IMG/VR virus record: IMGVR_UViG_3300042563_002756
Length of the DNA stretch: 64,000 nucleotides
Source: a virus
Direction: 5' to 3' (one strand)
Position 1 is the first letter of the stretch. Each line of letters begins with the position of its first letter. The translations under genes and the position numbers were made by a program. Under the pieces are notes generated by a model. The model was given only the letters and a program-made list of their open reading frames with translations. It had not been told where the DNA came from and searched no databases. Shown piece by piece: positions 3,738 to 30,250 of this stretch.

Positions 3738-4141
3738 CGTAGTGCCTCCATTGTGATAATTTTGTCAATCTCTTTGCCAAAGTCTGCATCGTTGGTAATG
3801 ACATACAGACCGTTTGAACTACGATCAGTCTTTTTATCATAACGGCGTGTTTCTACAACACGACCACCGTTGGCGACATAAACTGTAAAGTGCAAGGCAC
3901 GTTCTGGTTGATCAATGCTAGCAGGCCCGGCACTGATTGCCATTGACCTAGAAAGTCTATTCACTGAAACTGCTGAGTCTTTTTCTTGATTTTGTCGCTT
4001 CTCCCATTCGGCACCTTCCATTAGTTTCTTAAGAAACCAACGTGCTAACACTCCCGGACGTTTAACTTTCTTTTGAACGTCCGGTCTAAAATCTGATTCT
4101 TCTGCGTATTTTTCTGACGCTGTTACTGCATATCCATTCAT
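3734..4141 (-). CDS. hypothetical protein (135 aa)
   Basis: ORF, translationally coupled to flanking genes. Confidence 0.45.
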   Translation of the reverse strand: MNGYAVTASEKYAEESDFRPDVQKKVKRPGVLARWFLKKLMEGAEWEKRQNQEKDSAVSVNRLSRSMAISAGPASIDQPERALHFTVYVANGGRVVETRRYDKKTDRSSNGLYVITNDADFGKEIDKIITMEALR

Positions 4142-4602
4142 TGCTTATTCCTTTCTGCTTCTGCTACACGTTTACGCAGGCTTGAACTACTAAAAGAATG
4201 ATCTCGTCCGTTGTAAACAATTTCAATTCCGCGCTTCATACAAATTTCTTTACCTGTAAACTCTTTGTCTGCATACTCTACACCTAATATTCTAACATCT
4301 ACTGGCAGAATAAGCAATAGGTCTTCAAGGTCTTTTTCTGTTTGATAGACAACAACTTCATCCACATTGCGATTTGTACTGACCTGTATTTGTCGTTCTA
4401 CAATAGTTTGTATAGGTGGATTCTTTGTGTCTGGTCGATCAATAGTTGGATCAGTTTGCAGTGCAGCAATTAGATAATCGCAATGGTTCTTAGCTTCTGC
4501 CAACATGGCAACATGCCCTGCATGGAATAGATCAAAACTGCTGAATACAATTCCTACCTTTAATCCATCTTCTTTTAGTTGTTTTATTTTATTGAATATC
4601 AT
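4138..4602 (-). CDS. cytidylyltransferase (nucleotidyltransferase, HxGH class; glycerol-3-phosphate cytidylyltransferase-like) paralog 1
   Basis: FHAGH (HxGH) motif near N-terminus, size ~150 aa, paralogous to 16421..16903. Confidence 0.7.
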   Translation of the reverse strand: MIFNKIKQLKEDGLKVGIVFSSFDLFHAGHVAMLAEAKNHCDYLIAALQTDPTIDRPDTKNPPIQTIVERQIQVSTNRNVDEVVVYQTEKDLEDLLLILPVDVRILGVEYADKEFTGKEICMKRGIEIVYNGRDHSFSSSSLRKRVAEAERNKQ

Positions 4603-4888
4603 CTTTAAGATAACTTATAATTTTTTTCTGTTCTTGTTCATTGAGCCACTCTGCTTCAGTGCTTCCAAAGTTGGGACACATTTTCATCATGTCGTCTAAG
4701 AACCATTTTAACTGATATAGATCCTGTTTAACACCCCAAGCAATGAATCCGTCGTTGCGAGCGTTAGAGCATTCTGAAACTGCTGCTCTAACCTGTTGGA
4801 ATGTTTCTATAATATTGTATGAATGTTTGTGGCCCATATAGATAGTATAGAGGTAAAAAAAGGGCCCGTCAAGACCCTTATTCCCCAA
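4589..4888 (-). CDS. hypothetical protein (99 aa)
   Basis: ORF. Confidence 0.4.
   Translation of the reverse strand: MGNKGLDGPFFYLYTIYMGHKHSYNIIETFQQVRAAVSECSNARNDGFIAWGVKQDLYQLKWFLDDMMKMCPNFGSTEAEWLNEQEQKKIISYLKDDIQ
4858..4886 (-). terminator. putative rho-independent terminator after GroES-like gene
   Basis: minus-strand AAGGG-tcttgacggg-CCCTT followed by T7. Confidence 0.35.
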
Positions 4889-4895
4889 TATCTTG

Positions 4896-5276
4896 TTAGA
4901 TTCCCGGGATATTAAAGTTTACATTCGAACCTGCTCCGATAGTTTTTCGAATATCTACATCGTCTGGTCTTTCTTCTGCACTCATCAAAATAGCAGTATT
5001 ATCTACTCGGCGTAGCTCAATAATGTTTCCATCTTCTTGTTCTACTTCAAAAGTTCGCGTCCATCTACCATGTTCGACACATATCCAGTCCCCTACAGAT
5101 ACTTCGTTCTGCTCTGGACCAATGGCCCATACCCGGCCCCATCTCGGCTTAACGCCTCGAGACTTTCCATTGTCTGATTGAATTACAATACCCGATGCAG
5201 TTTTTTGTACACCGAAATCCATATCAGAAACAATTACGTGATCTCTGATTGGGCGAATTTTGCCTTTAGTTACCAT
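4896..5276 (-). CDS. GroES (Cpn10)-like co-chaperonin
   Basis: IRPIRDHVIV ... SGIVI ... KSRGVK ... VSVGDWI pattern aligns with bacterial GroES (IRPLHDRVIV / GGIVL / KSTRGEV / VKVGDIV). Confidence 0.55.
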   Translation of the reverse strand: MVTKGKIRPIRDHVIVSDMDFGVQKTASGIVIQSDNGKSRGVKPRWGRVWAIGPEQNEVSVGDWICVEHGRWTRTFEVEQEDGNIIELRRVDNTAILMSAEERPDDVDIRKTIGAGSNVNFNIPGI

Positions 5277-5546
5277 TTATTCTCCAGTAGTTTTTGTTTT
5301 ATTAGATGCAACAATACCTGATTGTGCTTGTTTAACTTTAGAAGATTCTGGAATTGCTTTAGGGTTGTTTTCATAATACTCAGCAATAACTTCTTCGCGT
5401 TTGCGAACAATTTTTCCACCTGGGCCTAATTCGTCCCCTCTTGCATTTACTCTTGCGTTGCCGATAGCAGGCATAAGTTCATTTTGCGTCATGAGCTTAT
5501 CCATGTCTACTTCTTTACCCTGCATTGTTTTATACACTCTTCCCAT
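5277..5546 (-). CDS. hypothetical protein (89 aa)
   Basis: ORF. Confidence 0.4.
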   Translation of the reverse strand: MGRVYKTMQGKEVDMDKLMTQNELMPAIGNARVNARGDELGPGGKIVRKREEVIAEYYENNPKAIPESSKVKQAQSGIVASNKTKTTGE

Positions 5547-5556
5547 ATCTATCTCC

Positions 5557-6111
5557 TTATTTTAGGAATTCTTTTATATCTAGATCGTATTTAATGCTAT
5601 CAATTCGGTGAACTCCGATAAGATATAACACATAGCTTGCTACACTACTTCCACGACCGACTCCCCACACGATTTTATTCTCTCGCATAGTGTCTACTAA
5701 GTATTTAAGGTAGAACAACAAATCAAACATGCCATGTTGGATAAAAAGTAGTAGTTCTTGATCTACTCTTGCACGTTGTTGTTCTGTAGTGCATCGATCA
5801 TACAACCAATCGACTATAGGAAACTCACTGCATTCTTTGGGCATAAACCAAGTGCATTGATTTGCTTCATCAAAAAATGCCACATCTTCTTGGGGTTGCT
5901 GCCACTCTTGTAGTGGAACAAGGTTGTCTTTGTTAGTGTCGACAGCAGTATTGAACTGAACTACTGTGTTGCTATCGAGGTAGACGTTTTGTAAACTTTT
6001 GAGTTTGCCCGAATACAAGTGTTCAAATAGTTCACTAGGATCTAGAAAGACGGCACCGTATTCATTGATATTCATATTAACATTATACGCACCTACTGCA
6101 TACAATGTCAA
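5557..6111 (-). CDS. hypothetical protein (184 aa)
   Basis: ORF. Confidence 0.45.
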   Translation of the reverse strand: MTLYAVGAYNVNMNINEYGAVFLDPSELFEHLYSGKLKSLQNVYLDSNTVVQFNTAVDTNKDNLVPLQEWQQPQEDVAFFDEANQCTWFMPKECSEFPIVDWLYDRCTTEQQRARVDQELLLFIQHGMFDLLFYLKYLVDTMRENKIVWGVGRGSSVASYVLYLIGVHRIDSIKYDLDIKEFLK

Positions 6112-6389
6112 TTATCTACGTTAATAAAATCGTCTAAATTCTTATTTTGATTTGCCAACTTTTGATTGGCTTTGATGTGACGGGTAGACTGCTCGGCTTT
6201 GTATGCTTCGAGTATTACTGAAATTTGGGTGCATACTGCGCCCTGTCCGAATCTAGCAGCCAAGAAGTACTTTTTCATTAACTCGGTAATCTTATTGTCG
6301 ATATCTTCGTTTTTCAACGTAGACAAATCTGGTAATAACGGATTAAACATTATGATAACGTAACTGAGGTACCAGTAAATGCATACCAT
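6108..6389 (-). CDS. hypothetical protein (93 aa)
   Basis: ORF. Confidence 0.4.
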   Translation of the reverse strand: MVCIYWYLSYVIIMFNPLLPDLSTLKNEDIDNKITELMKKYFLAARFGQGAVCTQISVILEAYKAEQSTRHIKANQKLANQNKNLDDFINVDN

Positions 6390-6745
6390 GTGCCGCTATG
6401 ATAATATGCAGGTCTATTGTATGCTGCGTCTGCAACAAATACCAATGTTCCGTTTTCTACATTTCCGGTATCAGTTAACGCAGATAGCTCGCTTAGACTA
6501 TAATTTTTTAATACAATTGAACAATCTACTAAGGTTGCTTTTTTAATTTCATTTCCACCAAAATTATTTGAGCTAGATAGACTTACTAAGTTTACCTGAA
6601 GGTTGGAAATTTCTTCTCCTGTTGTAGACAGTGCTGATTGAATATTAGAAAAGTTAGTTCTAAAACCCTGAGAATCGTTATCAGATCCAGGAACTGGATA
6701 GTTGATGTTTATTAAATTGCTATAATCTGTAATAGTACTTGCCAC
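6350..6745 (-). CDS. small structural-module protein, paralog A (131 aa)
   Basis: N-terminus MASTITDYSNLININYPVPGSDNDSQGFRTNFSNIQ paralogous to 6758..7015; sits next to tail fibre genes. Confidence 0.5.
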   Translation of the reverse strand: MASTITDYSNLININYPVPGSDNDSQGFRTNFSNIQSALSTTGEEISNLQVNLVSLSSSNNFGGNEIKKATLVDCSIVLKNYSLSELSALTDTGNVENGTLVFVADAAYNRPAYYHSGTWYAFTGTSVTLS

Positions 6746-6757
6746 AATTAACTCCTG

Positions 6758-7015: not shown

Positions 7016-7036
7016 GATTCAACTCCAGTGATGCTA

Positions 7037-7044: not shown

Positions 7045-7052
7045 GACAAAAC

Positions 7053-10019
7053 TCACTTGAGTTTATTTTTAAGTTCTTTAACTTCTTTAGATAATTCTTT
7101 AACAGCTTCAATTAAAAGTGGCACTAGTTTTTCATACTTGACAGCTAGATATCCGTTGGTTCTTGTAGCAACAATTTCTGGTAAAATTGCTTCAATTTCT
7201 TGAGCAATAACACCTATGTCGTGTTTTCTTACAAAGAAATCATCTTCTCCACCACGACTTTCAATATATGAATCTGTCCAGTCAAAGCGTACACCCCTAA
7301 TTTGTTCAAGCATTTCGAGAGGGTTGCTTAATGATTGTACATTTTCTTTTAGTCTAGCATCAGATGAGTAGTAAGCAGTGATTTCGTTTTCTGCCCTGAT
7401 TTCACCAACTGCCCCGCTGTACCAACCACTTCCTACTGACAGTGTAGTAACAGTAATTGTACTTTGATATGCTGGTGCCGCCGCACCTCGACTTACTGCA
7501 ATTTGACCTATAGAGCCCGGACCGTAGAAAGCAGTTGTATCAGGAGCTGATTGATAAGGAACTTGACCAGCAGTACCACCTGCTAAGTTTGTAGAATTAC
7601 CTACAGTAACTGTGCTAGGTGCTTGCCATGTAGCAGTGCTCGAACCCGCAGTTAACACATATCCGTTAACACCTATTGGAATAAATGCTGTTCTTCCAGG
7701 ACCGCTTTGGATAGGAATGCTGCCAGCGGTACCACCTGCTAGGTTAGTTGCAGTTGTAGAATTACCTACAGTAACTGTGCTAGGTGCTTGCCATGTAGCA
7801 GTCGTTGCTCCGGCTGTTAATACATGTCCAGCTGTTCCTAGAGTAATAAATGCAGTACGTCCCGGTGCGCTTTGAATAGGCATTGCACCTTGTGAACCAC
7901 CTGCTAGATGAGTAGCAGTGGTTGCATTGCCCGCTGTTAAATCAGTTACCTGACTCCATTGTGGTGCTGTACCTCCTGAATTAACAGTTAGTATATAACC
8001 TGCAGAGCCGATGCCTAAGAAAGTTGTAGTACCTGCACCAGTTTGGTATACAATAGAACCTGCTAATCCACCACCAACATTGTCAGTGATTGCAGATCTT
8101 CCTACATATAAAGATGAAGTTGATATAAAGGACGGACCTGTTGCACTAGCACCGTTGCTTACTAAAACTTGTCCTGCTATACCCGGGCCTACAAAACTAG
8201 TAACACCTGATGTAGTTTGGAATGGTAACTGTCCAGTAGTACCGTTTTTCAAGTTTGTAGCAGTAGTTGCTTCGCCCGCTGCAACTCCTGCTAGTGTTTC
8301 CCAGCGAGGACCACTAGCACCAGCGACCAGTACATAACCTAATGCGCCCAGTGATAAAAATACTGTACTGTTGGCAGCATTTTGATAAGGAAGTGATCCA
8401 GCACTACCACCTACTAGGTCGTCTGCTAAAGTTGATCGTCCAACATATATACTACTTGTGTTAGTAAACACCGGACCAGTTGATGTGGTTCCTGCACTCA
8501 CTAGCAGTTGTCCTGCTGTTCCTGGGCCAAAGAAACTAGTCAATCCAGGGCTAGTTTGGAATGGAACTTGTCCTGTAGTACCGTTCTTCAAGTTAGTTGC
8601 AGTGGTTGCTTCACCTGTAGCAATACCACTTAGTGATGCCCATTGAGGTGCAGTTGCACCTGCGGTTAACACATAACCGTTAGTGCCTAGAGGTAAAAAT
8701 ACTGTGCTGTTAGCACCATCTTGATAGACTAAACCACCTGCACCACCACCGACGATGTCATCTGCTAGTACCGCTCTACCTACGTAGATGTTTGATGTGG
8801 AAACAAATTTAGGACCAGTTGCACTTGCACCGTCACTGGTTAATATTTCACCCGCTGTACCTGGACCAAAGAAACTAGTGTTATGAGGTGCTGTCTGGAA
8901 TGGAACTTGTCCCGTAGTACCGTTCCTTAAATTAGTAGACGAATTAGCACTTGATATAGATCCAGAAACAGTTGCGTATAATGTTCCGCCTACATACAAA
9001 TCTCCACCAATACCTGCACCACCTCCGACAATCAATGCACCGGTATTAGTTGATGTTGCATTTGTAGCATTGTTAGTTTGTATAATATCATCTGTGACTA
9101 TTAACGTTGTTGTAACAGTTGTTAATTGAATTGTTAATTTTTGAGCAACAATTTCACCACCAACATACAAATCGCCACCGATACCGACACCACCTACAAC
9201 TCTTAGAGCACCGGTTTGCGTAGAAGTTGCAATAGTTGTGTTGGTTATAGTTGACGCAGGTGTAGTTAGTATACCGTTGTTTGTATTAAACACGAGGTTA
9301 CCACTTGCACCTAATGTTGCATAAGCACTAGCACCGGCAACCATTGTCAAGTATCTTAACGGAGTTGCTTCGCTGGTGCCCAAGCTGGTAACGTATGTTT
9401 TTTCACTTTCAGCAGATTTACCTACAGATATTGTAGTTGTTGAAACAAAACTTGCAGTATTTGTCTGAGCTTGTAGTAAACTTCCTGCTGCACCGGCTGA
9501 TATAAATGTAGTAACACTGGTTGCAGATTGAATAGGGATCTCGCCTGCTGCACCGTTGTTTATGTTATTTGTGTCTGTAGGGCCAGATGGACCAGATGGC
9601 CCAGTTGGCCCAGTAACACCTTGCGGTCCTTGCGGACCGGGAGGTCCTGAAGGTCCTTGAACGCCTTGCGGTCCTTGTGGACCTGTAGCACCCCTAGGTC
9701 CTTGAACGCCTTGCGGTCCTTGTGGACCTTGCGGACCAGTAACGCCCTGTGGTCCTTGAACTCCTTGTGGTCCCTGCGGGCCTTGAACGCCTTGTGGTCC
9801 TTGGGGTCCCTGAACTCCCTGTGGTCCTTGTGGACCTGTAACACCTTGTGGTCCCTGTGGACCAGTGGCACCTATTTGATTTCCTAACCAAGTTCTAACT
9901 CTTGCTGGTTCGAGTTGTTGCTCAACACCGTCGTGCGCTACAATGAATACCGTTTGGTAATCAGTAGGATTCGTTAAGTTAGTCGATAAGACTTCAGAAA
10001 GAGATGCTCTAATAGACAT
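7053..10019 (-). CDS. tail fibre protein: collagen-like N-terminal region, internal tandem repeats, C-terminal S74-type intramolecular chaperone autoprocessing domain
   Basis: ~35 Gly-X-Y triplets (GPQGPQGVQ...); three ~113-aa repeats ([14 protein letters not shown]...IYVGR...); C-term SDARLKENV...RFDWTD matches the SDxRLKE peptidase S74 IMC signature. Confidence 0.8.
7590..8990 (-). repeat. in-frame tandem coding repeats inside tail fibre gene (three ~340-nt units plus three shorter ~150-nt units; boundaries approximate)
   Basis: near-identical DNA blocks around 8170-8290, 8506-8632, 8830-8950; repeated peptide blocks in translation. Confidence 0.6.
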
Positions 10020-10102: not shown

Positions 10103-11650
10103 TTAAACCCAGGATTGAATGTTGGAACCTGTAGTTCCTACTCTAATCCATGTATCAGTTGCTACACAAACGTAAAGAAAATTTGTGTCATAAGATACAA
10201 GCCCAGAAAAACCTGACGAGTTAGGAAGTTTTGATCCTGTTCCAACTGCTACAGTGCCTGGTGGTCCCGACGGACCTGATGCTCCAGTGGGTCCAGTAGC
10301 TCCACTAGGACCTTGTGGTCCTGTAGCGCCAGATGGTCCACTAGGTCCTGTAGCGCCTACTCCTGATGGTCCACTAGGACCTGATGGTCCTGTTGGTCCA
10401 GTTGGTCCAACAAAGCCAATTCCGTTGGCGCCCGATGGGCCTGACGGTCCTGTCGGTCCTGTACTACCTGCGGGACCCTGCGGTCCTGTGGCACCTGCGC
10501 CCGATGGCCCAGTCGGACCTGATGGTCCTGCAACAGCACTTGCTGGACCCGGAGGGCCTGACGGTCCTGTTGCACCTTCTGGTCCTGTTGGACCCGACGG
10601 TCCTTGTGGCCCTGTAGCACCTGCACCTGTGGGTCCTACGTCACCTGGAATTCCTTGAGCACCTGACGGTCCTTGTGGGCCTTGTGGTCCCGTAGTACCA
10701 CCGCCGGTGCCGCCTGATATTGTAACCCATTCGGTGTCATACTCAGTGTTTGATGCTTTGGCTAGAACTTGTCCAGTAAATCCACCTACTGCTATGCCTG
10801 TGCCTGTGCTTCCAGGTGCGCCTGATGGTCCTGATGGTCCTGATGGGCCTGGCAAACCGGGGCTTCCCGGACTACCTGCAGGGCCTTGTGGTCCAGTAGG
10901 CCCTGCACCAGCAGTTGTACTAGTGTTGACCCATTTAGTACCGTCGTACTTTAAAAACTCTCCGCTAATAGGACTTGTTAGTGTTACATCAGTTAACGAG
11001 CTTAATGCAGTTACTCCCGGTGTTGCAGAACCTAAATTTACAACTCCGAATGTACCATACATGTCACTACTGTTTTCTGCGGCATAATATAGTGTAGATG
11101 GAGCGCCTAACGGTACAGCAAATGTAATTGTTCCCGTGGCTGTGCCATTATTAGTTACACCACTATTATATGTATTTTCAGTTCCTGTAGTAGCCGCAGT
11201 TTTAATCCATAACGGATACCCAGCAGCATTAACACTGAAGTTATATGTAAATCCTCTTACAAGGTTTAATGTAGGATCATTGAATCCTTCGATAATATAG
11301 TCTAAACTACCGTTGTTAGTAATAGTATATGTAATTCCAAACCCGCCACCTTCTGGTCCAGTTGGACCAGCGTCACCTTGCGGCCCTTGAGGACCAGAAG
11401 GCCCAGTTGGACCAGGTACTGTACTAGCATCGCCCTGCGGACCTTGTGGTCCTGTTGCACCTTCTGGTCCTTGTGGTCCAGCGCCACCAGCTACTCCGCC
11501 ATAGGCAAGAGTAGCCCAGGTCGAAGTGCCGCTGCCTATTTTAAATTGCCCTGTATCTGTTTCTAGGGCCATTTCTCCTTCGGCCAGGACAGGGTTTGCA
11601 GAACTCCATTCTGCAGCGGTACCTCTTCTAAGTTGAATTTGAACAGCCAT
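10103..11650 (-). CDS. collagen-like tail fibre/structural protein (515 aa) with conserved phage fibre N-terminal domain
   Basis: N-term [32 protein letters not shown]; multiple Gly-X-Y runs. Confidence 0.7.
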
Positions 11651-11675: not shown

Positions 11676-11684
11676 TATTTATTA
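11676..11684 (-). promoter_or_regulatory. late-promoter-like TAATAAATA
   Basis: TAATAAATA 26 nt upstream of ATG 11650 (overlaps stop of upstream gene). Confidence 0.3.
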
Positions 11685-12104
11685 CACACCACCTGCATTG
11701 ATGGGTGTGATTCCACCATATATAGATGACGGTGTACCACCATCTAAATTTAAAATTCCTTCGCCACTTGCACCACTAGGACCCGATACTCCACTGGGAC
11801 CTGTAGGTCCAGGTACTCCTATTGGTCCTTGAGGACCCGTGGGACCTACAATACTATCGCCCTGTGGTCCTTGCGGACCTGTGGGACCAAAAACTCCCTG
11901 TGGTCCTTCTGGCCCTTGTGGTCCTTGCGGCCCTACAGGACCAGTAGGTCCTACAATCTGTATAGCAGCTTCGTTAACTAGAGTAATTAACTGCTCTAAT
12001 TCCATTTTCCTGGTTCTAGCAGGCTCGTAAGAGACATCAACAACTGGAACAATAAGTTGATCTGTTAATGTGCTTAAAAATGGTAAATTGGTGATTCTTG
12101 CCAT
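11682..12104 (-). CDS. small collagen-like structural protein (140 aa)
   Basis: [19 protein letters not shown]... Gly-X-Y run. Confidence 0.6.
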
Positions 12105-13307: not shown

Positions 13308-13676
13308 ATGGAAATTATTGTCGCAGTCGCAGTATTTGGCTTTGGATTATGGTGGGTCTTTTTAAGAACTCCTGCTGATACAAAACCATCTGCACCTTAT
13401 AAAATTGAAACTCCACCTGCACCGGAACCTGCTCCGGTTGTGGTAGAAACTGCACCTGCAGTTGTTACTGATACAGTAGTGGTAGTAGAAAATGCAGTCG
13501 TACCAGAAGCTGTAGTAGCAGAAGCTCCTGCTAAGAAGCCACGTACACCACGTGCTCCTAAAGTAGAAGCTCCTGTAGCAAAACCAGCCGCAAAAAAAGC
13601 AGCCCCTGTTAAGAAGGCTGCTGCTATTAAAGCTGCTCCTAAGAAACCAGCAACTCCGAGATCAAAGAAGGCTTAA
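13308..13676 (+). CDS. membrane-anchored low-complexity protein with histone H1/AlgP-like Lys-Ala-Pro repeat tail
   Basis: N-terminal hydrophobic helix (IIVAVAVFGFGLWWVFL), then APAPEPAPVVV and KKAAPVKKAAAIKAAPKKPATPRSKK repeats; AAAGGA RBS. Confidence 0.55.
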   Translation: MEIIVAVAVFGFGLWWVFLRTPADTKPSAPYKIETPPAPEPAPVVVETAPAVVTDTVVVVENAVVPEAVVAEAPAKKPRTPRAPKVEAPVAKPAAKKAAPVKKAAAIKAAPKKPATPRSKKA

Positions 13677-14690
13677 TTTTTTAGCTCGGTCGGCAAGGGC
13701 AACGCTCGCAAGGTTTTTGCCCTTTGCTTCTACCATAATATCATGGGTATCGAGGAAACTTAATGCCCATTCATTTACTGCGGTGTTCCACATAAAATTA
13801 CTGTGGGCTCGCAGTTTCTGCTTTTTGTGTCCGGCTTCTAATAGCTGTGCATAATCGGGCAGTGTTTTCTCACAATGTCCAGGTAGCCATTCTTCACGGC
13901 TAACAGAATAGTGCATAACGGGTCGAACACCCCGCCAGCTGTCAATCACACGTAGAACTCTATCGTCGGTGGGTTGAATGTAGTCTCCTGTACGGACCCA
14001 GTGATGGTGTACGTCAAGCACGAGGGCGCAATGTTTTTGCAGCTCAAGGCTGCTTTCGATTCCCCAGGCGTTCTCGTCGTTTTCAATTGTGATGCAGTTT
14101 CTTGCTTCGGGGGTAAGTCTTCCGAGTACATCCTTAATGCCTTGTGGACCTCTTCGACCCGAGATGTGGACGTTGATTTTAAAGTCTTGAAACGATTTAC
14201 CATATCCCATCCAGCGGGCCATATCCACATGATATTCAAACTCCTCTATCGACCTATTTACAATATCATCCGACTCACTTGCCAAGACAGTAAACTGACC
14301 AGGATGAAAGCTGAGCCTAACGCCGCCCTTGCGAGCCAGATCTCCCACGGCTCGAAATGCTCTTTCGCAATAGGCTCTAACATCGGATAGCCTGTAAAAG
14401 AACTGCCAATCGCGCTGAGTATACACAGGTAGTATATCGCTGCCGAGTCGTACCATTCTAAGATTTTCATCAAGTGCTCCTACACGTTCTACCAGTTTGC
14501 GAACAGCTTCAATGTTACCTTTAGTAAGGTCCCAAAGTTTTTCTTCTGCTACATTCTGGCTCTGTCTATTTAACCACGCAACGGTGGTAGAGCCAGTATT
14601 GTACTTTTTAGCATCGTCATTGGGCTTGATGCCATTAACTTGTGCAGGAGTGTCGATCCATTTGCAGGCAAATCCAATTTGTTTTTTCAT
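13662..14690 (-). CDS. uvdE: UV-damage endonuclease (UvdE/UvsE family TIM-barrel)
   Basis: SFHPGQFT, INVHISGRRG, ITIENDE, LVLDVHHHW, IMVEAKGKN blocks align with B. subtilis UvsE (SFHPNQFT, INIHIGGAYG, LTLENDD, FVFDFHHF, FMIEAKQKD). Confidence 0.8.
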   Translation of the reverse strand: MKKQIGFACKWIDTPAQVNGIKPNDDAKKYNTGSTTVAWLNRQSQNVAEEKLWDLTKGNIEAVRKLVERVGALDENLRMVRLGSDILPVYTQRDWQFFYRLSDVRAYCERAFRAVGDLARKGGVRLSFHPGQFTVLASESDDIVNRSIEEFEYHVDMARWMGYGKSFQDFKINVHISGRRGPQGIKDVLGRLTPEARNCITIENDENAWGIESSLELQKHCALVLDVHHHWVRTGDYIQPTDDRVLRVIDSWRGVRPVMHYSVSREEWLPGHCEKTLPDYAQLLEAGHKKQKLRAHSNFMWNTAVNEWALSFLDTHDIMVEAKGKNLASVALADRAKKLSLL

Positions 14691-15337
14691 GATATCAATC
14701 TTAAATGAGAGGGCGTTGTTATCCCAATTTCTGGAAAAAAGTTTTTTGTGTAAATGTCAAATGCAATTCCAACCCTTAAATTTCCCTGATAGGGCAATGT
14801 TTCGTGTGGCATAATGCAAGAAAAGAAATGTATGTCTCCTGTTTTATTTGGAATTTTTAAAATGTCTTTACCGTAATACACAGTATCACTAGGTGCATCA
14901 CCTTGTAAGAATAAGTTTCCACAGATTGTTTTAAACACATTCTTTTTAAACATGTCATTCTCAATAATCGGAGATGCATGGTGCATGTGTTTTTCTATTC
15001 TTTCTCCTTTTCGGAAAATATTAGCCCACATTTTAACATAGAATTCCTCCCCACCAATGATCTGTTTTGCAGATTCTAAAATCTTTTTAAGCAACGGATT
15101 TATTTGATTAGGAAGAAAATCAATTAAATTGTAATATTCGTGTCTAGTGGTAATAGAATTAACGGGTGCTTCTTTGTAATGTGACGGACCTAATCCAATA
15201 ATTTTACTTTCTAGTTTAACAATACTATCAGTAAGTGCATTACAATAAGTTTGATCTAGTACATTGACCCCGAGGATATTGTTTTTGAAATTCTCAATGC
15301 GGTCTTCGTAGACTATTTGGGTTTGTGCAACGACCAT
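14687..15337 (-). CDS. hypothetical protein, possible cupin/2OG-oxygenase-like fold (216 aa)
   Basis: HMHH ... E and PHE His-rich motifs; weak. Confidence 0.35.
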   Translation of the reverse strand: MVVAQTQIVYEDRIENFKNNILGVNVLDQTYCNALTDSIVKLESKIIGLGPSHYKEAPVNSITTRHEYYNLIDFLPNQINPLLKKILESAKQIIGGEEFYVKMWANIFRKGERIEKHMHHASPIIENDMFKKNVFKTICGNLFLQGDAPSDTVYYGKDILKIPNKTGDIHFFSCIMPHETLPYQGNLRVGIAFDIYTKNFFPEIGITTPSHLRLIS

Positions 15338-15480
15338 GAACCATCCTTGTTGTCAATCCATTCGAGGGTGTCGCCTTCTACCCAACCTTGCATATTGAGT
15401 AGTTCTTGAGGCAACGGCAAAATAAGATCCTTAGTATCGGGATCTTCTTCAAGTATTACTGTCCAAGAATGTTTAGTCAT
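15313..15480 (-). CDS. small ORF (55 aa) overlapping start of downstream gene
   Basis: MTKHSWTVILEEDPDTKDLILPLPQELLNMQGWVEGDTLEWIDNKDGSWSLHKPK; not in ORF track (<60 aa). Confidence 0.25.
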   Translation of the reverse strand: MTKHSWTVILEEDPDTKDLILPLPQELLNMQGWVEGDTLEWIDNKDGSWSLHKPK

Positions 15481-15488
15481 AGTATATT

Positions 15489-16424
15489 TTACACGATTGT
15501 ACGGAAATAGTCAATGGTTCTAACAAGTCCTTGTTCCAAATTGATTTTAGGTTCCCAATCGAGCATAGACTTTGCTACTGAAATATCCGGACGACGTTGC
15601 TTTGGATCGTCTTGAGGCAAAGGCATTTGAAGGATTTGGCTCTTGCTTCCGGTAAGTTCAATAACTTTATGTGCTAATTCCCACATGGTAAACTCTCCTG
15701 GATTGCCAGTATTGACAGGCCCGATAAAATTATCGTCGGTGTGGTTCATCATTGCCTGCATAGCATCCAAAAGATCATCAACATAGCAGAAACTACGAGT
15801 TTGCATACCATCACCGTAGATAGTAATGTCTTTGCCTTGTAGTGCTTGAACGATGAAATTACTAACTACTCTGCCATCATTTTGAGCCATTCTTGGGCCA
15901 TAAGTGTTGAAAATACGAACAATTTTGGCCTTAACATCGTGAGTACGGTAGTAGTCCATAAACAGTGTTTCTGCGGCACGTTTACCCTCATCGTAGCAAC
16001 TACGGATACCAATTGGATTTACATTGCCCCAATATGATTCCGGTTGTGGATGTACAGTTGGGTCACCGTAGCATTCACTGGTACTTGCCTGTAGAATCTT
16101 AGCACCAGTACGTTTGGCCAAACCTAGCATATTGTAGGCACCTAGCACACTGGTTTTCATTGTTTGGATAGGATCCCATTGATAATAATATGGACTTGCA
16201 GGGCAAGCCAAATTATAAATCTCATCAACTTCTACATATAATGGAAAGCAAACATCTTGTCGGATGACTTCAAAATTCTTGTTATCTAATAAATGAGCAA
16301 TATTGTTTTTGCTACCTGTAAAATAATTGTCCACACAAAGAACATGGTGTCCTTCGTTGACAAGCCGATCACATAAATGTGAACCTAAAAATCCTGCGCC
16401 GCCTGTTACTAATACTTTTTTCAT
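15489..16424 (-). CDS. UDP-glucuronate decarboxylase (UDP-xylose synthase, extended SDR)
   Basis: [26 protein letters not shown] catalytic motifs typical of UXS. Confidence 0.85.
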
Positions 16425-16903
16425 TTGTTTCCTTTAATTAAATTAGGTGAGTACTGTGGCAATACATTACTAACTTCTGTTTCTTTTTTATTTTCTAGTT
16501 TAACGGTTCTATCTCTAAGTTCGCTAGAACTATAAACATGTTCTCTTTTATGATAGTGTAATTCTATACCGTTGTCAATACACCATTGCTTGCCTGTAAA
16601 ATCTCTATTTAGATATTCGTCACTGAGAAACCGAATATGAATAGTCTGTGTCTTAAGTAATTGTAACAGATCGAATTCGGTTTCGTATATTAAAATTTCA
16701 TCCACATATTTGCAGGCCTGTAATTGCACATATCTTTCATAGGCACTTTGAACAGGTTTATTTTTAACTCCAGGTCTATCTATTGAAGGATCAATTTGAA
16801 GTGCAACAACAAGATAATCGCATAACTGTTTCTCCATTTTAAGCATGGTTACATGACCTGCATGTAACAGATCAAAACTACTACAGTTAAATCCTATCTT
16901 CAT
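16421..16903 (-). CDS. cytidylyltransferase paralog 2 (HxGH nucleotidyltransferase)
   Basis: LLHAGH motif; paralog of 4138..4602 over whole length. Confidence 0.7.
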
Positions 16904-17034
16904 TCTGCGTCCTTTGGCGCTACAATTCCATATTGTTCATACATCCATTTAATAAATCTTTCAATTTCTTTACTTGGGTATGGATACGCTTTGTATGCTA
17001 TGGTTACTCTTTCTAACCAATCTTTATCTGTCAT
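16900..17034 (-). CDS. small ORF (44 aa), ATGA-coupled to cytidylyltransferase
   Basis: [44 protein letters not shown]. Confidence 0.3.
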   Translation of the reverse strand: MTDKDWLERVTIAYKAYPYPSKEIERFIKWMYEQYGIVAPKDAE

Positions 17035-17189
17035 GTTAGTTCCAGTGCCTTAATACACCTGCTACTATAAAGCAGTTTGTTATTATGTATGATAGCACAA
17101 TAAATGTGCGAAAGCAAGCAATTAGATCTGATTCCGAATCTGTATTGCCTGCTTTTTCTCCAAGGGCCTTAGCCCATAGTCTCCAAATG

Positions 17190-17696
17190 TTACGCAAATA
17201 GGTCTTCATTCCATTCACGATGTCCTTCACGGAACGCCATATTGGCCTGTGTTTCGCGTACTTCCACACGATAGCACCAAAGTCTTGCCGCTTCGCCCGG
17301 TCCCCACATCTCTGGAATGTAAACGCCGTTGACATATTTGTAGAGCATGTCACTTAATGCTTCACAACCGAGTGCTGGTAGAATGACAATCTTAGCCATG
17401 TTCTTTTCTTGTAGCATTTTGAATACTTCCATTTGAGGATCGTCTTGTGCAACAATTAAAGTATGATCGAATTGATCCTCTAATGTTTTCTTTAGTTCTT
17501 TTAAACCACCATAGTCAGCTGCCCAATTGCGGACATCTAGGTCGTTGGTGCCAAAGTAGAATTTCATGCTAAATGAATAGCCGTGAATTAGATTACAATG
17601 ACTATCACTGCGCCATTGGCGGTATGCACAGGGAAATGCATCGTGATATTCTTTTGTGCTTGTGTACTTGTATAGTACGGGTTGTAGATTTGCCAT
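17190..17696 (-). CDS. 6-pyruvoyl-tetrahydropterin synthase / QueD-like T-fold enzyme
   Basis: C-x3-HG(Y) motif (HCNLIHGYSF), size 168 aa; AAAGGAGA RBS. Confidence 0.55.
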   Translation of the reverse strand: MANLQPVLYKYTSTKEYHDAFPCAYRQWRSDSHCNLIHGYSFSMKFYFGTNDLDVRNWAADYGGLKELKKTLEDQFDHTLIVAQDDPQMEVFKMLQEKNMAKIVILPALGCEALSDMLYKYVNGVYIPEMWGPGEAARLWCYRVEVRETQANMAFREGHREWNEDLFA

Positions 17697-17796: not shown

Positions 17797-18381
17797 TTAT
17801 CGACGTGAAACAATTTTGTCGCAAAGACCATAAGCCAGTGCTTCATCTGCGCTCATAAATGTATCTCGATCCATATCACGCTCAAAATCGGGATAGCTTT
17901 TACCGGCGGTATTGTGTTCAACATACAATTTGGTTAACATGGTTTTCATTTGTGTGATTTCTTTGTATTGAATTTCAATATCACTCTGCATACCACGAGC
18001 ACCACCACTAGGCTGATGAATCATGTGACGAGCATGTGGCAACATAAAACGTTTACCTGGATGTCCTGCCTGTGCTAGGAAACTACCCATTGAACAAGCC
18101 TGACCCATAACATAGGTACACACATTTGGTTTGACAAACTGCATAACGTCATAGATAGCCATGCCACTTGTAATTACACCGCCTGGACTATTAATGTAAA
18201 AGTGAATATCCTTTTCGCTGTCTGAACTTTCCAAATGTAGGATCTGTGCTACAATTAGATTACTACTGTGATCATCGACTGGTCCATTCAAGAACACAAT
18301 ACGCTCATTAAGCAAGCGGCTAAAAATATCAAAGGCTCTTTCGCCTTGTCCGGTCTTCTCGACCACCATTGGTACTAACAT
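17797..18381 (-). CDS. clpP: ATP-dependent Clp protease proteolytic subunit ClpP
   Basis: INSPGG, catalytic Ser in GQACSMGS, His in MIHQP; full-length similarity to ClpP. Confidence 0.9.
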
Positions 18382-23668: not shown

Positions 23669-24524
23669 GACGCACCTTGATAAGACGGATCATCATTTCT
23701 TCATCTTCGGCTTCGTATGCCTGCTCAATTTCGTGAGTCTTCATAAGAGCAGCATCGCCTAAGGCACGAGTTTCTGGATTAGCACTTTCTTTCATAAAGC
23801 TAAGTCCAGTCTCGCCGTGTTCTTTGCGCTTGAGTTCACAGTACTCACTCCACCCGCCGGCATCGTGTGCGTCAGGACGGTTTGGATAAACATCTTTCCA
23901 CCAACGATATAGGTCAAGAACTTCCTGTGCCTTAACAGCCTGCGGAGTTGGCTTACCAATATTTGGATCACCTTCGGCCCAGCCACTATCTGTATCGTGG
24001 CGGAGACTTCGTTGCCAATCCAGATTGTCGAGTCCAGCTTGTGGACAACGCCAGGTTCTCCAACGGAACCAACCAGTTGCCCAGAATGGGGGATTATACT
24101 TAACACTGTCTGCCTTATCTGCCCAAGCAATTTGCCACCAAGCTAATTCGACTTCAACAAAGTCGACCAGCTCATTAAAAAGACAAGGAAGGAAACGATT
24201 ACCAACATCACACCACTGACCGGGTTTAATGTCTTTAGGGTGTGCAGTGAGACTATGAGTACGAGTAACCCACCGGTTATTAACATAATACTTGATATCA
24301 TAAATCTTCCTAACGGGCCAAGTGACAAAGTCTTGGAGGTGGCCGAGTGCTTCTTCCGCTAGCCAGTAACGGAAATTGTGTTTCATTTGAGCCGCAGTTG
24401 TCCAGTCGTCCCATTGTTCAGCTGTACCGGCACTAAGTTTCTTAGTACCACGAAGCCAATCTGCAAAAGGACTGCAACTCCAATATTTCGAGTGTTGTGC
24501 CATTTTAGTCTTTCTTTTCGCCAA
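23652..24524 (-). CDS. hypothetical Trp-rich protein (290 aa)
   Basis: ORF. Confidence 0.5.
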   Translation of the reverse strand: MAKRKTKMAQHSKYWSCSPFADWLRGTKKLSAGTAEQWDDWTTAAQMKHNFRYWLAEEALGHLQDFVTWPVRKIYDIKYYVNNRWVTRTHSLTAHPKDIKPGQWCDVGNRFLPCLFNELVDFVEVELAWWQIAWADKADSVKYNPPFWATGWFRWRTWRCPQAGLDNLDWQRSLRHDTDSGWAEGDPNIGKPTPQAVKAQEVLDLYRWWKDVYPNRPDAHDAGGWSEYCELKRKEHGETGLSFMKESANPETRALGDAALMKTHEIEQAYEAEDEEMMIRLIKVRHGLWT

Positions 24525-25191
24525 ACAGTTGTAGTAGGCTTAGGAACAAGTTAATAAAATTCAAATACAAGCTCAGTGCTCCGCGAATTTCGGCAACACC
24601 ATCATTTTCCATTGATACCTCTTCACGAATACGCTGTGTGTCGTAGGCAGTTAATCCAAGGAACACTAGAATAGCAATGGCCGAAATGACCATTTGAAAT
24701 ACTGTGCTACCAACAAAAATATTGATAACGCTGGCAATAATAATGGCAATCAATCCAATTAACAATAGTGATCCAAATCCACTAAGATCCTTTTTAGTAA
24801 AGTACCCGTATCCACTCATAACACCAAATAGGATCGCACCTCCCATAAAGGCCGATACAATACTGCCCATGTTGTACACCACAAAAATTGTAGCAAAACT
24901 AAGCCCCATGAGTGCTGAAAATATATACAAAAATATCTGTGAGCCCGTTTTACTAAACTTTTCACTGGCTACACTAAATGCCAAAATCAGTAAAAGAGGT
25001 GCAAAAATTACTATCCATTTCATAATACCAGTGAAGAAAAAGGCCATCAATGCTGCATTAGCACTGACCTGATAGCTAGTAAACATTGAAATCAATACCG
25101 CAATTGCCATGTGCCCATAGACCCGACCCATTGCAGAATTGATCTGCTCTGCGTTTCTATAGACACTATTTTCATAAGTTGTCGAATACAT
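24505..25191 (-). CDS. Bax inhibitor-1/YccA-family multipass membrane protein
   Basis: ~7 hydrophobic segments; C-terminal GALSLYLNFINLFLSLLQLFG resembles YccA/BI-1 signature end. Confidence 0.7.
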   Translation of the reverse strand: MYSTTYENSVYRNAEQINSAMGRVYGHMAIAVLISMFTSYQVSANAALMAFFFTGIMKWIVIFAPLLLILAFSVASEKFSKTGSQIFLYIFSALMGLSFATIFVVYNMGSIVSAFMGGAILFGVMSGYGYFTKKDLSGFGSLLLIGLIAIIIASVINIFVGSTVFQMVISAIAILVFLGLTAYDTQRIREEVSMENDGVAEIRGALSLYLNFINLFLSLLQLFGEKKD

Positions 25192-26980: not shown

Positions 26981-27297
26981 GATAGATGAAATACAGTTAT
27001 AAATTTTTCAGCATCACTGCGATTTTTAAAATCCCACATGTCCCAAGACATTCGCTTACAGTTGGGCCAATCTTTTAATTTTTCTTCTGTCCATCTAACA
27101 CAGTTGTCTAGATTTATTGAATGAAGATGGTCGTTTACAAATTCCTCTGCCTCGGACGAACCCCAGTCTTCTACAAGTTGTAGCCGCCACCATCTTACAC
27201 CGGTACCTGTTCCATCACAATTAAGTTTAGGTTTAATCACAGAAAGTTTTTTGCTCCACTGAAATATCACCGCCTGCAAATCATCAAGTGCGCTCAT
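26968..27297 (-). CDS. hypothetical protein (109 aa)
   Basis: ORF. Confidence 0.4.
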   Translation of the reverse strand: MSALDDLQAVIFQWSKKLSVIKPKLNCDGTGTGVRWWRLQLVEDWGSSEAEEFVNDHLHSINLDNCVRWTEEKLKDWPNCKRMSWDMWDFKNRSDAEKFITVFHLSWAQ

Positions 27298-27749
27298 GCC
27301 TTCTTCTTTTTAAAGTACCGACGCTTTGGTTTATTGTCTTTTAGATTTAAAGGAGCGTGTTCCATCTCCATTTGACTCTTCTGTAGAGCCGCATGTATTT
27401 CTTCCGTGCTAGGCCCTTCTTCTTCCTCAGATGAGTCAAGACTGGGATGATCATCAAATGCAAAACCAACAGTACTGGCAAATTTAATAGTAGATTCAAA
27501 ATTACCAAGGTTTCTTAAAGACCCCACCGGACCTTTTTCGTCTTGACTAATGTTATGCCACGTTCGAATCTCAAGAATAGGTTCAATGTGTGAAGGTACT
27601 TCGATAATATAGTGATCACCGACAGAGTACCCTGCTTCACTTAGGTCAATTACTTTAATAACCTTGCCCTGAACAGGCTTGGTATTGCTTCGGTTAATGC
27701 CATATATCCATACTGTATCACCTACTGCATATTGTTTTTTAACTGTCAT
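27294..27749 (-). CDS. hypothetical protein (151 aa)
   Basis: ORF. Confidence 0.45.
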   Translation of the reverse strand: MTVKKQYAVGDTVWIYGINRSNTKPVQGKVIKVIDLSEAGYSVGDHYIIEVPSHIEPILEIRTWHNISQDEKGPVGSLRNLGNFESTIKFASTVGFAFDDHPSLDSSEEEEGPSTEEIHAALQKSQMEMEHAPLNLKDNKPKRRYFKKKKA

Positions 27750-27912
27750 GTTTTTCCTTAACGCTTACGTTACCTTTAGACTCTAACATGTCCTTAATGA
27801 ACTTGATAGCTTTTCTATCGGTATCGTAAACGTATTCTGCGTCCTCGTCATCGGTCCGCAAAGTTACTACAACACCGTTTTTTACCTTACGGATCTCGAT
27901 TGACTCAAACAT
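27739..27912 (-). CDS. small ORF (57 aa)
   Basis: MFESIEIRKVKNGVVVTLRTDDEDAEYVYDTDRKAIKFIKDMLESKGNVSVKEKHDS; fills the gap between flanking genes. Confidence 0.3.
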   Translation of the reverse strand: MFESIEIRKVKNGVVVTLRTDDEDAEYVYDTDRKAIKFIKDMLESKGNVSVKEKHDS

Positions 27913-27924
27913 AAATTCACCTTT

Positions 27925-28656
27925 TTATTTAGGAACACTTAAATTGTAATTGAAGTGAAAGATTCCAATATGAGCTGTTTCACGACTCAACTCTTGATCA
28001 CACCAGATCTCGTAACCTGCTTTTTGTGCCTGTTGACAGAAGAAGATATCTTCACCGATTTCCAAATTAAGTTCTGGAATAAACTCTTGCAAGTAATGAG
28101 GCTGTGGGATTTTTTCATATACTTCACGCTTGCAAAGTACTAGACCGTGTGGTAGAACATCGATCAGTTCCATTGCTGGACTATTATCTGTAGTTTGGAA
28201 TTCACGGAAGTTTCCGCTAGATCCAACCATACCTGTGAAGTTTGCATTAGGGAAACGACGACGACGATAGTTAGCACCCACAATGTCTTTGTTCCGCTTG
28301 AGTAAACGAATAGGAGCATCGATTGGAAACTTCATATCACTGTCAACCCACCAAATATAATCAAAGTCACTCTTTAAAAAGATGTCAACTAGATTACGAC
28401 GAGCAATAGTAATAACTGATCCGATATTAAATGCACAATTAATCTTAATACCGTGTGCTACTAGATTAGCAGCCGACATGGCAAGATGTTGTGCAAACTC
28501 TGCATTGACCATTTCCATTGATGGAACAGCGATCATAATTGATGGCGGTTTACCTCCTGGCTGCGTTGGCATCGCAGTAGTAGTTGGTGCCGTCGGAGCC
28601 GTCGGGCGAGCCAAGTTAGTCGGGCGGCTTGGAATGTTTAATTTACCTTTTTTCAT
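27925..28656 (-). CDS. putative glycosyltransferase (DxD, GT-A-like) with Pro/Thr/Ala-rich N-terminus
   Basis: WWVDSDMKF DxD-type motif; low-complexity PTAPTAPTTTAMPTQP N-terminal linker. Confidence 0.4.
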   Translation of the reverse strand: MKKGKLNIPSRPTNLARPTAPTAPTTTAMPTQPGGKPPSIMIAVPSMEMVNAEFAQHLAMSAANLVAHGIKINCAFNIGSVITIARRNLVDIFLKSDFDYIWWVDSDMKFPIDAPIRLLKRNKDIVGANYRRRRFPNANFTGMVGSSGNFREFQTTDNSPAMELIDVLPHGLVLCKREVYEKIPQPHYLQEFIPELNLEIGEDIFFCQQAQKAGYEIWCDQELSRETAHIGIFHFNYNLSVPK

Positions 28657-28668
28657 TTTTATCCTTAA

Positions 28669-29367
28669 TTATCTAGGTGCGAACTCTTGTTGTAATTTGA
28701 TGTTATCAAAAAATTCTTTCTTTGTAGCTGGATCATCTCTAAATGATCCTTTGAGCACAGTTGTTTGAGTTAATGAACTATGCGCCATGATGCCACGATT
28801 CTCACAGCACCCGTGTACTGCTTGAATGTAGACTGCTACGTTTTCTGAGGCAGTAGCTTTACTAATTTCTCGGGCAATGTCGTTGCAAAGTTCCTCCTGG
28901 AGAGTCCCGCGACGAGCACACCACTGAGCAATACGAGTGTACTTGCTAAGACCAATAAGTTTTTCTGCGGCGATGATGCCAATGTAAGCGACACCGCTAA
29001 CGGGCTGATGATGATGACTGCACATAGAGCGCAACTCACTACGTACCACCAGCATACCTTCGTATCGGTCTTCTGAATCGTTTGGAAATGCTGTTGCGTC
29101 TGGTGCTGCTTCATATCTTCCTGCCATTATTTCATTGTAGTACATCTTGGCCAGTCTACGTGCTGTGCCTTTGCTGTTGGGGTCGGTTTCACGATCGATC
29201 AACAGTGAATCTAACACTTTTTCAAAGGCCTCTGTTGCTTCGTCAATAAGTTCAGGCATAACATTGTTGTCGACATAGTCGCTGATGTTGTCGCCTGCCC
29301 AGAAGCGTTTGTTATCTTGTTTCATTCGATCGCGGATAACTTGCGATAGATTTTTACTTGTATCCAT
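28669..29367 (-). CDS. folE: GTP cyclohydrolase I (FolE)
   Basis: CSHHHQPVSGVAYIGIIAAEKLIGLSKYTRIAQWCARRGTLQEEL and VHGCCENRG align with E. coli FolE. Confidence 0.9.
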   Translation of the reverse strand: MDTSKNLSQVIRDRMKQDNKRFWAGDNISDYVDNNVMPELIDEATEAFEKVLDSLLIDRETDPNSKGTARRLAKMYYNEIMAGRYEAAPDATAFPNDSEDRYEGMLVVRSELRSMCSHHHQPVSGVAYIGIIAAEKLIGLSKYTRIAQWCARRGTLQEELCNDIAREISKATASENVAVYIQAVHGCCENRGIMAHSSLTQTTVLKGSFRDDPATKKEFFDNIKLQQEFAPR

Positions 29368-29388
29368 TTATTCTCCGAGTTATTGTCG

Positions 29389-29398
29389 TGGATGACTT
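29389..29398 (-). promoter_or_regulatory. TATAATATAC promoter-like motif upstream of folE
   Basis: member of the recurrent TATAATATA(T)AC family. Confidence 0.4.
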
Positions 29399-29416
29399 GT
29401 ATATTATAATACATTA

Positions 29417-30250
29417 TTATTTAGGTTCAGTCAAGCGTAGTATTAGATTTTTCTTAACTGCGGAGTCCAAAACATTCATTTGCACACCTTGTTGTTCTGC
29501 GTATTTTAATAGAGCAGAAGTATCTTTTGGAAAGCACATACCACCAAATCCGAACTCGCCGTCGGGTCCTGGCACTTTCATATGACTATTGCCAATACGA
29601 CTATCCATTGTAATCATACTGGCAATCTTATTATAATCTTGCCCTGTTTTAGTAGCAAGGGCATATAACTCATTCATAAACGTAACCTTAGTCGATAGGA
29701 ATGAATTGATAGCATATTTGCTCAGTGCGGCTTCTTGGATAGTGCAATGCTGTACCTGTTCTAATGCAGTTTGCCCAAGCCGAATAATGCGTTCTGCATC
29801 ACGCTGATATGCACCTACGCTACCGCCGATAATGGCAAACTTGCCATTTATATAATCTCTCTCAGCATTGGCAGCAGTTAGAAACTCCGGAGCATGAACT
29901 AGATTAGGGTACTGATCATTTAGAGTTTGGTACACACTAGGTGGTGCAGTACACTTACTGATAATAACGCCTTTGTAATCTTTAAGTTTTTCTAAGACGT
30001 ACTCTAATATACTGGCATCGCATTTGCCATCGTCTCCCATTGGAGTAGGTACGCAGACAAACACGCCTTCGCAGTCGGCGAGATCTTTAAATGTGTGTGA
30101 ACCTTTTGTTGTATCTTTATCAACTAGTATAAGGTCAGTTGAGATTTCCATTGATCTAGCAATGGCACTGCCTACAAATCCTAGGCCCACAATGCCTATT
30201 TTTGGGTTATTTGAAAAAGGGAAATTCATAATATATGTATTTAATGTCAT
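29417..30250 (-). CDS. UDP-glucose/GDP-mannose dehydrogenase-family protein, short form (277 aa) lacking the C-terminal UDP-binding domain
   Basis: N-terminal Rossmann IGIVGLGFVGSA; catalytic GFGGMCFPKD Cys motif; ends ~50 aa after it. Confidence 0.65.
   Translation of the reverse strand: MTLNTYIMNFPFSNNPKIGIVGLGFVGSAIARSMEISTDLILVDKDTTKGSHTFKDLADCEGVFVCVPTPMGDDGKCDASILEYVLEKLKDYKGVIISKCTAPPSVYQTLNDQYPNLVHAPEFLTAANAERDYINGKFAIIGGSVGAYQRDAERIIRLGQTALEQVQHCTIQEAALSKYAINSFLSTKVTFMNELYALATKTGQDYNKIASMITMDSRIGNSHMKVPGPDGEFGFGGMCFPKDTSALLKYAEQQGVQMNVLDSAVKKNLILRLTEPK

Follow-up and report, generated by a model that had tools for sequence, protein, structure and literature searches.

The window considered here, 64,000 nucleotides of the IMG/VR virus record IMGVR_UViG_3300042563_002756, is part of a large T4-related phage genome and carries a set of genes for making and using nucleotide sugars. 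The gene at the centre of this account encodes a short, two-domain Ugd-like dehydrogenase of 277 amino acids (UgdS, 29417..30250). The same set includes a UDP-glucuronate decarboxylase (UXS, 15489..16424), two paralogous HxGH nucleotidyltransferases (NT1, 4138..4602, and NT2, 16421..16903), a GT2-family glycosyltransferase (50054..50809), a GT4 (GT-B) glycosyltransferase (52116..53138) and a probable glycosyltransferase of the GT-A fold (orf243, 27925..28656). All of these open reading frames (ORFs) had been named in an earlier, sequence-only reading of the window, and all are found at these coordinates on the minus strand. UXS, UgdS and the two nucleotidyltransferases are recognised by Pfam or sequence matches with E-values far beyond chance, and the nucleotide-sugar toolkit is real. 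As such it is ordinary, similar rfaE/Ugd/glycosyltransferase sets being known as auxiliary genes of aquatic myophages.

The window also encodes rIIA and rIIB, a clamp loader, PhoH and tail fibres. The closest match to the clamp loader (61% identity) is that of the Pseudomonas jumbo phage PA5oct, and two metagenomic contigs (72 and 367 kb) encode relatives at ~87% protein identity; a megablast search of cultured phages with the window DNA found no match. Around 67 of the window ORFs were scanned with Pfam or PHROGs, with some 25 mostly small ORFs lying outside the scan, and where families are said below to be missing from the ORFs scanned it is this set that is meant.

UgdS matches the Pfam domains PF03721 (partial, 48 bits) and PF00984 (84 bits), which represent the N-terminal and central domains only, and gives no Pfam match to PF03720, the C-terminal UDP-sugar-binding domain. 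The GFGGMCFPKD motif that contains the catalytic cysteine occupies residues 234–243. Translation stops 34 amino acids further on (rather than the ~50 estimated in the sequence-only reading, which was otherwise right about the early stop), 9 amino acids past the conserved N268. The ORF ends TAATAA and is followed by a 49-nt spacer and then by the start, at 29367, of the gene for GTP cyclohydrolase I (FolE, 28669-29367), directly downstream. The C-terminal domain of a full-length Ugd, used as a tblastn query against all frames of the window, found nothing (best E 2.5). The double stop, the position of folE and the tblastn result together indicate that the truncation is real and not the product of a frameshift, and they rule out an outcome that had been named in advance as fatal to the idea, a pseudogene whose C-terminal domain continues in another frame. 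A C-terminal domain contributed by a neighbouring ORF likewise found no support from Pfam, NCBIfam and tblastn (a 78-amino acid ORF being covered by six-frame tblastn only). As the close homologues are 270 amino acids long, the true start of UgdS is probably Met8 (30229). An AlphaFold2 model of the protein has a pLDDT of 95, and its top 50 fold matches in the PDB are all UDP-glucose dehydrogenases (UGDH) of at least 377 amino acids, around half of each being covered (TMq ~0.8, TMt ~0.5).

Judged by its homologues, UgdS belongs to a widespread family and is not an oddity confined to this genome. The best 120 database homologues are all 262-329 amino acids long and have no Pfam domains beyond the two N-terminal ones. 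When 1.84 billion cluster representatives were searched exhaustively with phmmer, 631 clusters (50% identity) scored E<=1e-30, with nearly all of the top 150 falling between 250 and 300 amino acids, and each complete ORF among the 72 IMG/VR loci that encode a relative is 256-289 amino acids long. The family is large and diverse, is found mostly on phage contigs and comprises thousands of phage sequences. Cultured phages with short forms include Campylobacter phage CP220 (gp019, 256 amino acids), Microbacterium phage Ariadne (gp94, 259 amino acids) and phage C48C1; the proteins are labelled ‘UDP-glucose dehydrogenase’ with no comment on the truncation. The Campylobacter and Microbacterium phage papers mention the Ugd gene, and no description of a short or two-domain phage Ugd was found in the literature searched, the missing domain and the link to UXS and the transferase passing unremarked. 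The two-domain family is a hitherto undescribed form of a familiar enzyme. In species-representative cellular genomes the best 80 of up to 600 pattern matches listed are no more than 36% identical to UgdS and are mostly full-length; a few short forms occur in single-cell and metagenome assemblies, within glycan clusters. Just past the catalytic region, one 465-amino acid homologue (P0258) weakly resembles an intein splicing domain in Pfam, at 21 bits under a cut-off of 36.

Family members as little as 33% identical retain GxGxxG, D44, T101, E122 (of PEFL), K178, N182, C239, K242 and D243 as invariant or nearly invariant features. The Rossmann residues G22, G24, G27 and D44 are invariant across the family, as are E122, K178, N182 and C239, and D243 is kept in at least 90% of sequences. 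With the canonical Ugd/UGDH/HasB enzymes (e.g. PDB 3gg2, 1dli and 2q3e) UgdS shares the Rossmann NAD domain with its GxGxxG motif, the central helical domain, the glutamate of PEFL, the lysine and asparagine of KYxxN and the cysteine and aspartate of GFGGxCFPKD. It differs from them in having lost the entire C-terminal UDP-binding domain (~140 amino acids), the family stopping 5-9 residues past the conserved Asn...Arg, and in lacking a ~30-amino acid segment of the N-terminal domain that contains PIYEPGL. What has been gained is a four-amino acid insertion (VPGPDGxxGFGG) together with an invariant histidine, just before the catalytic cysteine.

UXS aligns over its full length with human UXS1 (2b69/4gll) at an E-value of 1.7e-119, the next family scoring 1e-38, and retains the catalytic TSE and YxxxK motifs as well as YDEGKR. 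Its prior identification as a UDP-glucuronate decarboxylase holds, and the prediction that it is a true UXS orthologue converting UDP-glucuronate to UDP-xylose is strongly supported. Where it departs from human UXS1 (PDB 2b69) is in being phage-encoded and in lying within a variable cargo slot between the PTPS and UvdE genes. A scan for promoters and terminators around the UXS operon gave nothing above background.

The two nucleotidyltransferases are 48% identical to one another, both contain the sequence HAGH and both exceed the PF01467 cut-off of 21 bits (NT1 38.5 bits, NT2 47.7 bits), as expected of the cytidylyltransferase-superfamily paralogues they had been taken for. The best curated match for both is to RfaE domain II in NCBIfam (NT1 71 bits, NT2 62 bits), far under its cut-off of 181.5; scores against TagD are 47 and 43 bits, respectively, far under a cut-off of 165.4. 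Among solved structures, ECT and TagD are the best relatives. RfaE domain II is a sugar-1-phosphate adenylyltransferase. In common with RfaE/HldE domain II, TagD and ECT, the phage proteins comprise a PF01467 domain of ~150 amino acids with an HxGH motif, and have a C-terminal R..SSS where RTxGISTT sits in those enzymes; they differ in being standalone proteins without a kinase domain. Heptose or glycerol-phosphate genes are not their genomic partners, which are instead UXS, RmlC- and RmlD-like genes, a phosphomannose isomerase (PMI) cupin and short Ugd. The proposal that these enzymes make CDP-glycerol, CDP-ribitol or CMP-sugars for a teichoic acid-like product has therefore been dropped: RfaE domain II is the best match, the partners are sugar-nucleotide enzymes and no glycerophosphotransferase (TagF-like) family was found among the ORFs scanned.

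Four kinds of evidence link the transferase, UgdS and UXS: protein fusions, operon structure, synteny in other lineages and ancestral clustering. The fusions join short Ugd to GalU (P0267; E 5e-53 to 3juj), to an NTP_transferase domain (P0238), to UXS (P0248; E 6e-93) and to a transferase domain 45% identical to NT2 (P0168), the last being found as an identical protein on 13 contigs from different assemblies. In the window itself the stop codon of NT2 overlaps the start codon of UXS in the sequence ATGA, by which the two genes are predicted to be translationally coupled, and the NT2-UXS pair is adjacent in many relatives. Orthologues of NT2 (>590 viral matches, the best 80 at 81-100% identity) either adjoin UXS or are placed between RmlC-like and RmlD-like genes. 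In C48C1, short Ugd adjoins a short-chain dehydrogenase/reductase (SDR) resembling UDP-glucuronate 4-epimerase, and GalE-like SDRs adjoin it in ~18 loci; in Ariadne, a glycosyltransferase gene overlaps the short Ugd gene. Elsewhere its near neighbours are a CAP59-like glycosyltransferase, a DegT aminotransferase and a fusion of transferase and PMI cupin, and cell-surface glycan clusters contain it in a Dehalococcoidia metagenome-assembled genome and a SAR86 single-cell assembly. A recurrent phage protein of 255-256 amino acids (in loci L024, L026, L036, L166 and others) combines an HxGH cytidylyltransferase-like domain with a type-II phosphomannose-isomerase cupin domain, a layout that resembles ManC/AlgA with a different transferase fold; it is encoded a few genes from short Ugd and NT2 orthologues.

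The fourth kind of evidence comes from gene order. Relatives have a contiguous block of genes in the order GT4, orf253, DUF6445, GT2, dCMP deaminase, orf244, a 78-amino acid ORF, short Ugd, FolE and orf243. In the window this block is split by an 18.45-kb island of low GC content (28-36%) at 31272-49722, which on the right ends within the ORF for dCMP deaminase. The IMG/VR contigs L005 and L006, otherwise 97-99% identical, lack the island, and in the pre-insertion order UgdS lay less than 5 kb from GT4 and GT2. Comparison with these contigs thus indicates an insertion into an ancestral cluster, which had gone unnoticed in the earlier reading, and the dispersal of the genes across the window is in part a consequence of this recent event. 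The DUF6445 protein (50809-51357, minus strand; PF20043, 64 bits) and orf253 (51358-52119, minus strand; syntenic in relatives) are encoded between GT4 and GT2, and DUF6445 homologues adjoin UXS on other contigs. Upstream of UgdS lies the conserved orf244 (30506-31240), which has no family match and contains a metalloprotease-like HELIH (HExxH) motif.

Of the three glycosyltransferases originally proposed, two are recognised by Pfam and are conserved in relatives: GT4 matches PF00534 (55.2 bits, cut-off 26.4) and PF13692 (51 bits), and GT2 weakly matches PF00535 (27.4 bits, cut-off 23.3). The third, orf243, has no Pfam or NCBIfam match and is plausible from its predicted fold, the AlphaFold2 model (pLDDT 62, medium confidence) adopting a GT-A fold that Foldseek matches to COLGALT1, STIV A197, XXT1, Mimivirus R699 and GtrB (E 4e-6 to 1e-4, TM 0.4-0.5). 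The model also matches GT-A-like nucleotidyltransferases, which have the same fold. The D105-S-D107 sequence is invariant, identity is at least 77% across the 120 best cluster representatives and the position of the gene, two genes downstream of UgdS and after FolE, is kept. We regard orf243 as a probable, although unproven, transferase.

We consider it probable, if far from assured, that these genes form a phage nucleotide-sugar supply line, most likely ending in UDP-xylose, that feeds the phage glycosyltransferases. In this scheme NT2 (and possibly also NT1) would activate a hexose-1-phosphate, presumably to NDP/UDP-glucose, and UgdS would then oxidise C6 of the activated glucose to give glucuronate, using its Cys, Lys, Asn, Asp and Glu residues, both steps being suggested by the fusions and by synteny. 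UXS, by orthology, would decarboxylate UDP-glucuronate to UDP-xylose, and GT4, GT2 and the GT-A-like orf243 may, from their context, build a glycan from the products. The GalU and UXS fusions lead us to infer that UgdS oxidises UDP-glucose two-fold in an NAD+-dependent reaction. Nucleotide binding would probably be achieved through the family-specific loop (VPGPDGxxGFGG plus the invariant histidine), through a partner (nucleotidyltransferase or UXS) or through both. A xylose-containing product is the best reading; of the interpretation first put forward for the locus, the toolkit, UXS, the truncated Ugd and this product are retained, and the polyol-phosphate, teichoic-acid and CMP-sugar chemistry is not.

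That natural fusions of three kinds exist would suggest a channelling complex. A more far-reaching reading, which we regard as doubtful, has UgdS as a minimal UGDH that has shed its own nucleotide-binding domain and acts in such a complex with the nucleotidyltransferase or UXS, or else converting glucose-1-phosphate to glucuronate-1-phosphate, with the HxGH transferase as a non-orthologous replacement for GalU or UDP-sugar pyrophosphorylase. In either case the transferase would have that role, and if true this would be a new, phage-widespread route to UDP-glucuronate and UDP-xylose. The question matters beyond this one genome. Phage sugar pathways decide which glycans are found on virions, DNA and infected cells, and with them host range, immune recognition and defence evasion, and short Ugd, a very common and as yet uncharacterised enzyme of phages, routinely carries the label UDP-glucose dehydrogenase though it lacks the UDP-binding domain. 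Were it active, it would represent the minimal catalytic unit of the enzyme family and part of a compact three-gene cassette for UDP-glucuronate and UDP-xylose; were it inactive, thousands of database annotations would be wrong.

A number of observations weigh against the supply line. Most UDP contacts in canonical UGDH come from the C-terminal domain, and the activity of UgdS on UDP-glucose is for this reason unproven; its score against TIGR03026 in NCBIfam (142.9 bits) is also under the cut-off of 189.8. NT1 and NT2 are under every equivalog cut-off, we are aware of no HxGH-superfamily enzyme that makes UDP-glucose, and neither phosphoglucomutase nor GalU is encoded in the window. Here 13 kb separates UgdS from UXS, the UXS-short Ugd fusion is known from a single contig, the immediate neighbour of UgdS is FolE, and the short Ugd of CP220 lies two genes downstream of a QueE-like gene. 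It is conceivable, though unlikely, that UgdS is not a UDP-glucose dehydrogenase and instead oxidises a sugar-1-phosphate (glucose-1-phosphate to glucuronate-1-phosphate, followed by activation by the HxGH enzyme) or an acceptor-bound hexose. Such a substrate would suit a protein from which both the UDP-binding domain and the PIYEPGL segment are wholly absent and which falls short of the TIGR03026 cut-off, and the nucleotidyltransferase fusions are compatible with either order of reactions. The GalU fusion, however, puts a UDP-glucose-forming enzyme beside UgdS, the sugar-site residues and the nearest structures are those of UDP-glucose dehydrogenases, and UXS, being similar to human UXS1 over its full length, should need UDP-glucuronate.

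The remaining alternatives dispense with the pathway or redirect its product. The genes might be independent auxiliary functions with no pathway in common, UXS using host UDP-glucuronate, the nucleotidyltransferases making ADP-heptose, CDP-glycerol or something similar for the remodelling of host lipopolysaccharide (LPS) or teichoic acid (superinfection exclusion) and UgdS perturbing host UDP-sugar pools. The dispersal of the genes over 4138-53138 fits this, as does the view, taken in passages of PMC7029224, that in pelagimyophages and cyanomyophages the genes for rfaE, Ugd and glycosyltransferases serve O-chain modification, and capsule interference has been proposed by the authors of the Campylobacter phage work (PMC3322345). 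We think it distinctly unlikely all the same: the transferase, UgdS and UXS are joined in pairs through fusions and operon links, no TagF-like or heptosyltransferase family was found among the ORFs scanned and the dispersal is partly due to the island. That the phage DNA receives the sugars, in a glycosyl hypermodification of the kind found in T-even phages, SP-15 and arabinosyl-5-hydroxycytosine phages, seems very improbable. GT2 does abut the dCMP deaminase gene, with a MazG-like gene nearby, and in SP-15, whose hypermodification cluster likewise combines genes for glycosyltransferases and dCMP deaminase with Ugd and a uridylyltransferase, a base bearing glucuronolactone is predicted to be made with the help of Ugd, GalU and glycosyltransferases (PMC5977210). 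SP-15, however, puts glucuronolactone phosphate on a modified uracil, and the ORFs scanned here include no base-modifying enzyme, be it a thymidylate synthase-like hydroxymethylase or hydroxylase or a base kinase. Arabinosylation by the known pathway, for its part, relies on different enzymes (PMC13326640), and its MurU-like transferases, kinase, HAD phosphatase and arabinose-5-phosphate isomerase are not seen in the window. Least credible of all, to our minds, is that UgdS and the transferase/UXS pair act with FolE and the PTPS/QueD homologue (17190-17696) to give a glycosylated pterin or 7-deazapurine. The adjacency of UgdS and FolE is kept in 14 loci, the PTPS gene is upstream of NT2-UXS and there is the QueE-like gene of CP220 to consider; but FolE is the neighbour in a single related clade (65-100% identity), the partners of UgdS in other clades being SDRs, glycosyltransferases and aminotransferases, and PTPS and UvdE look like the fixed flanks of the variable cargo slot. 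The route to pterins or 7-deazaguanine begins with the steps of FolE and PTPS/QueD, and QueE, QueC and DpdA were not recognised among the ORFs scanned.

If the glycosyltransferases are indeed supplied with UDP-xylose by the phage, the most plausible acceptors would be its own collagen-like tail fibres or the host envelope. Three consecutive proteins of the tail-fibre region (7053-10019, 10103-11650 and 11682-12104) contain G-X-Y triplets (GPQ/GPT/GPS) repeated up to 33 times in long collagen-like runs, with proline at X, glutamine, threonine or serine at Y and no lysine, and are encoded 3-9 kb from the UXS operon, the slot that holds the UXS cassette adjoining the tail-fibre module. The proximity of such fibres to the cassette makes virion glycosylation attractive, and we offer glycosylation of the collagen-like fibres as a lead only. 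Virion protein glycosylation has reportedly been described in mycobacteriophages by Freeman et al. in 2023, and BclA of Bacillus is a collagen-like glycoprotein. In phages that glycosylate their virions, too, glycosyltransferase genes occur together with those for structural proteins. Lysyl hydroxylation of the collagen-like runs followed by glycosylation was considered and dropped as the runs lack lysine, for which reason the matches of orf243 to COLGALT1, LH3 and R699 are best regarded as generic GT-A similarity.

Host-envelope remodelling is the usual reading in the literature, as in passages of Zaragoza-Solas et al. 2020 (PMC7029224) where rfaE, UDP-glucose 6-dehydrogenase and glycosyltransferases are treated as auxiliary genes of pelagimyophages and cyanomyophages. 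The likeness to the present set lies in rfaE-like, Ugd and glycosyltransferase genes placed near the tail-fibre/host-recognition region of aquatic T4-like phages. That account is at the level of annotation and the passages searched mention no truncation, UXS or fusions; the window phage also differs in representing another, larger lineage, the one whose closest clamp-loader match is PA5oct.

The PTPS-UvdE region (window 13662-17696; loci L077-L156) behaves as a variable cargo slot across ~80 related contigs. Besides UXS and NT2, the contents exchanged include RmlC-like and RmlD-like proteins, a cupin, 2-oxoglutarate (2OG)-Fe(II) oxygenases, a DAO-type FAD oxidoreductase and a GT2 protein, together with a weakly matching GT47/RXYLT1-like protein, WYL_2 and a GIY-YIG homing endonuclease. 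The 18.45-kb island encodes solute-binding proteins (one TRAP DctP and two of TctC-like type), a Rieske protein, two fatty-acid desaturases, an AMP-binding ligase, an SDR, a PP-loop ATPase and a BKACE enzyme, together with a pair of large radical-SAM proteins, of which one has a B12-binding domain. Other cargo in the window comprises a ClpP protease (17797-18381), a Bax1-inhibitor-like membrane protein (24505-25191) and an SPFH/Band-7 protein (53877-54674). Also among the cargo are a gene for a Cpn10/gp31-like co-chaperonin (4896-5276) and a fragment-sized ORF of 184 amino acids (5557-6111) that matches the NTPase domain of the DNA polymerase III alpha subunit.

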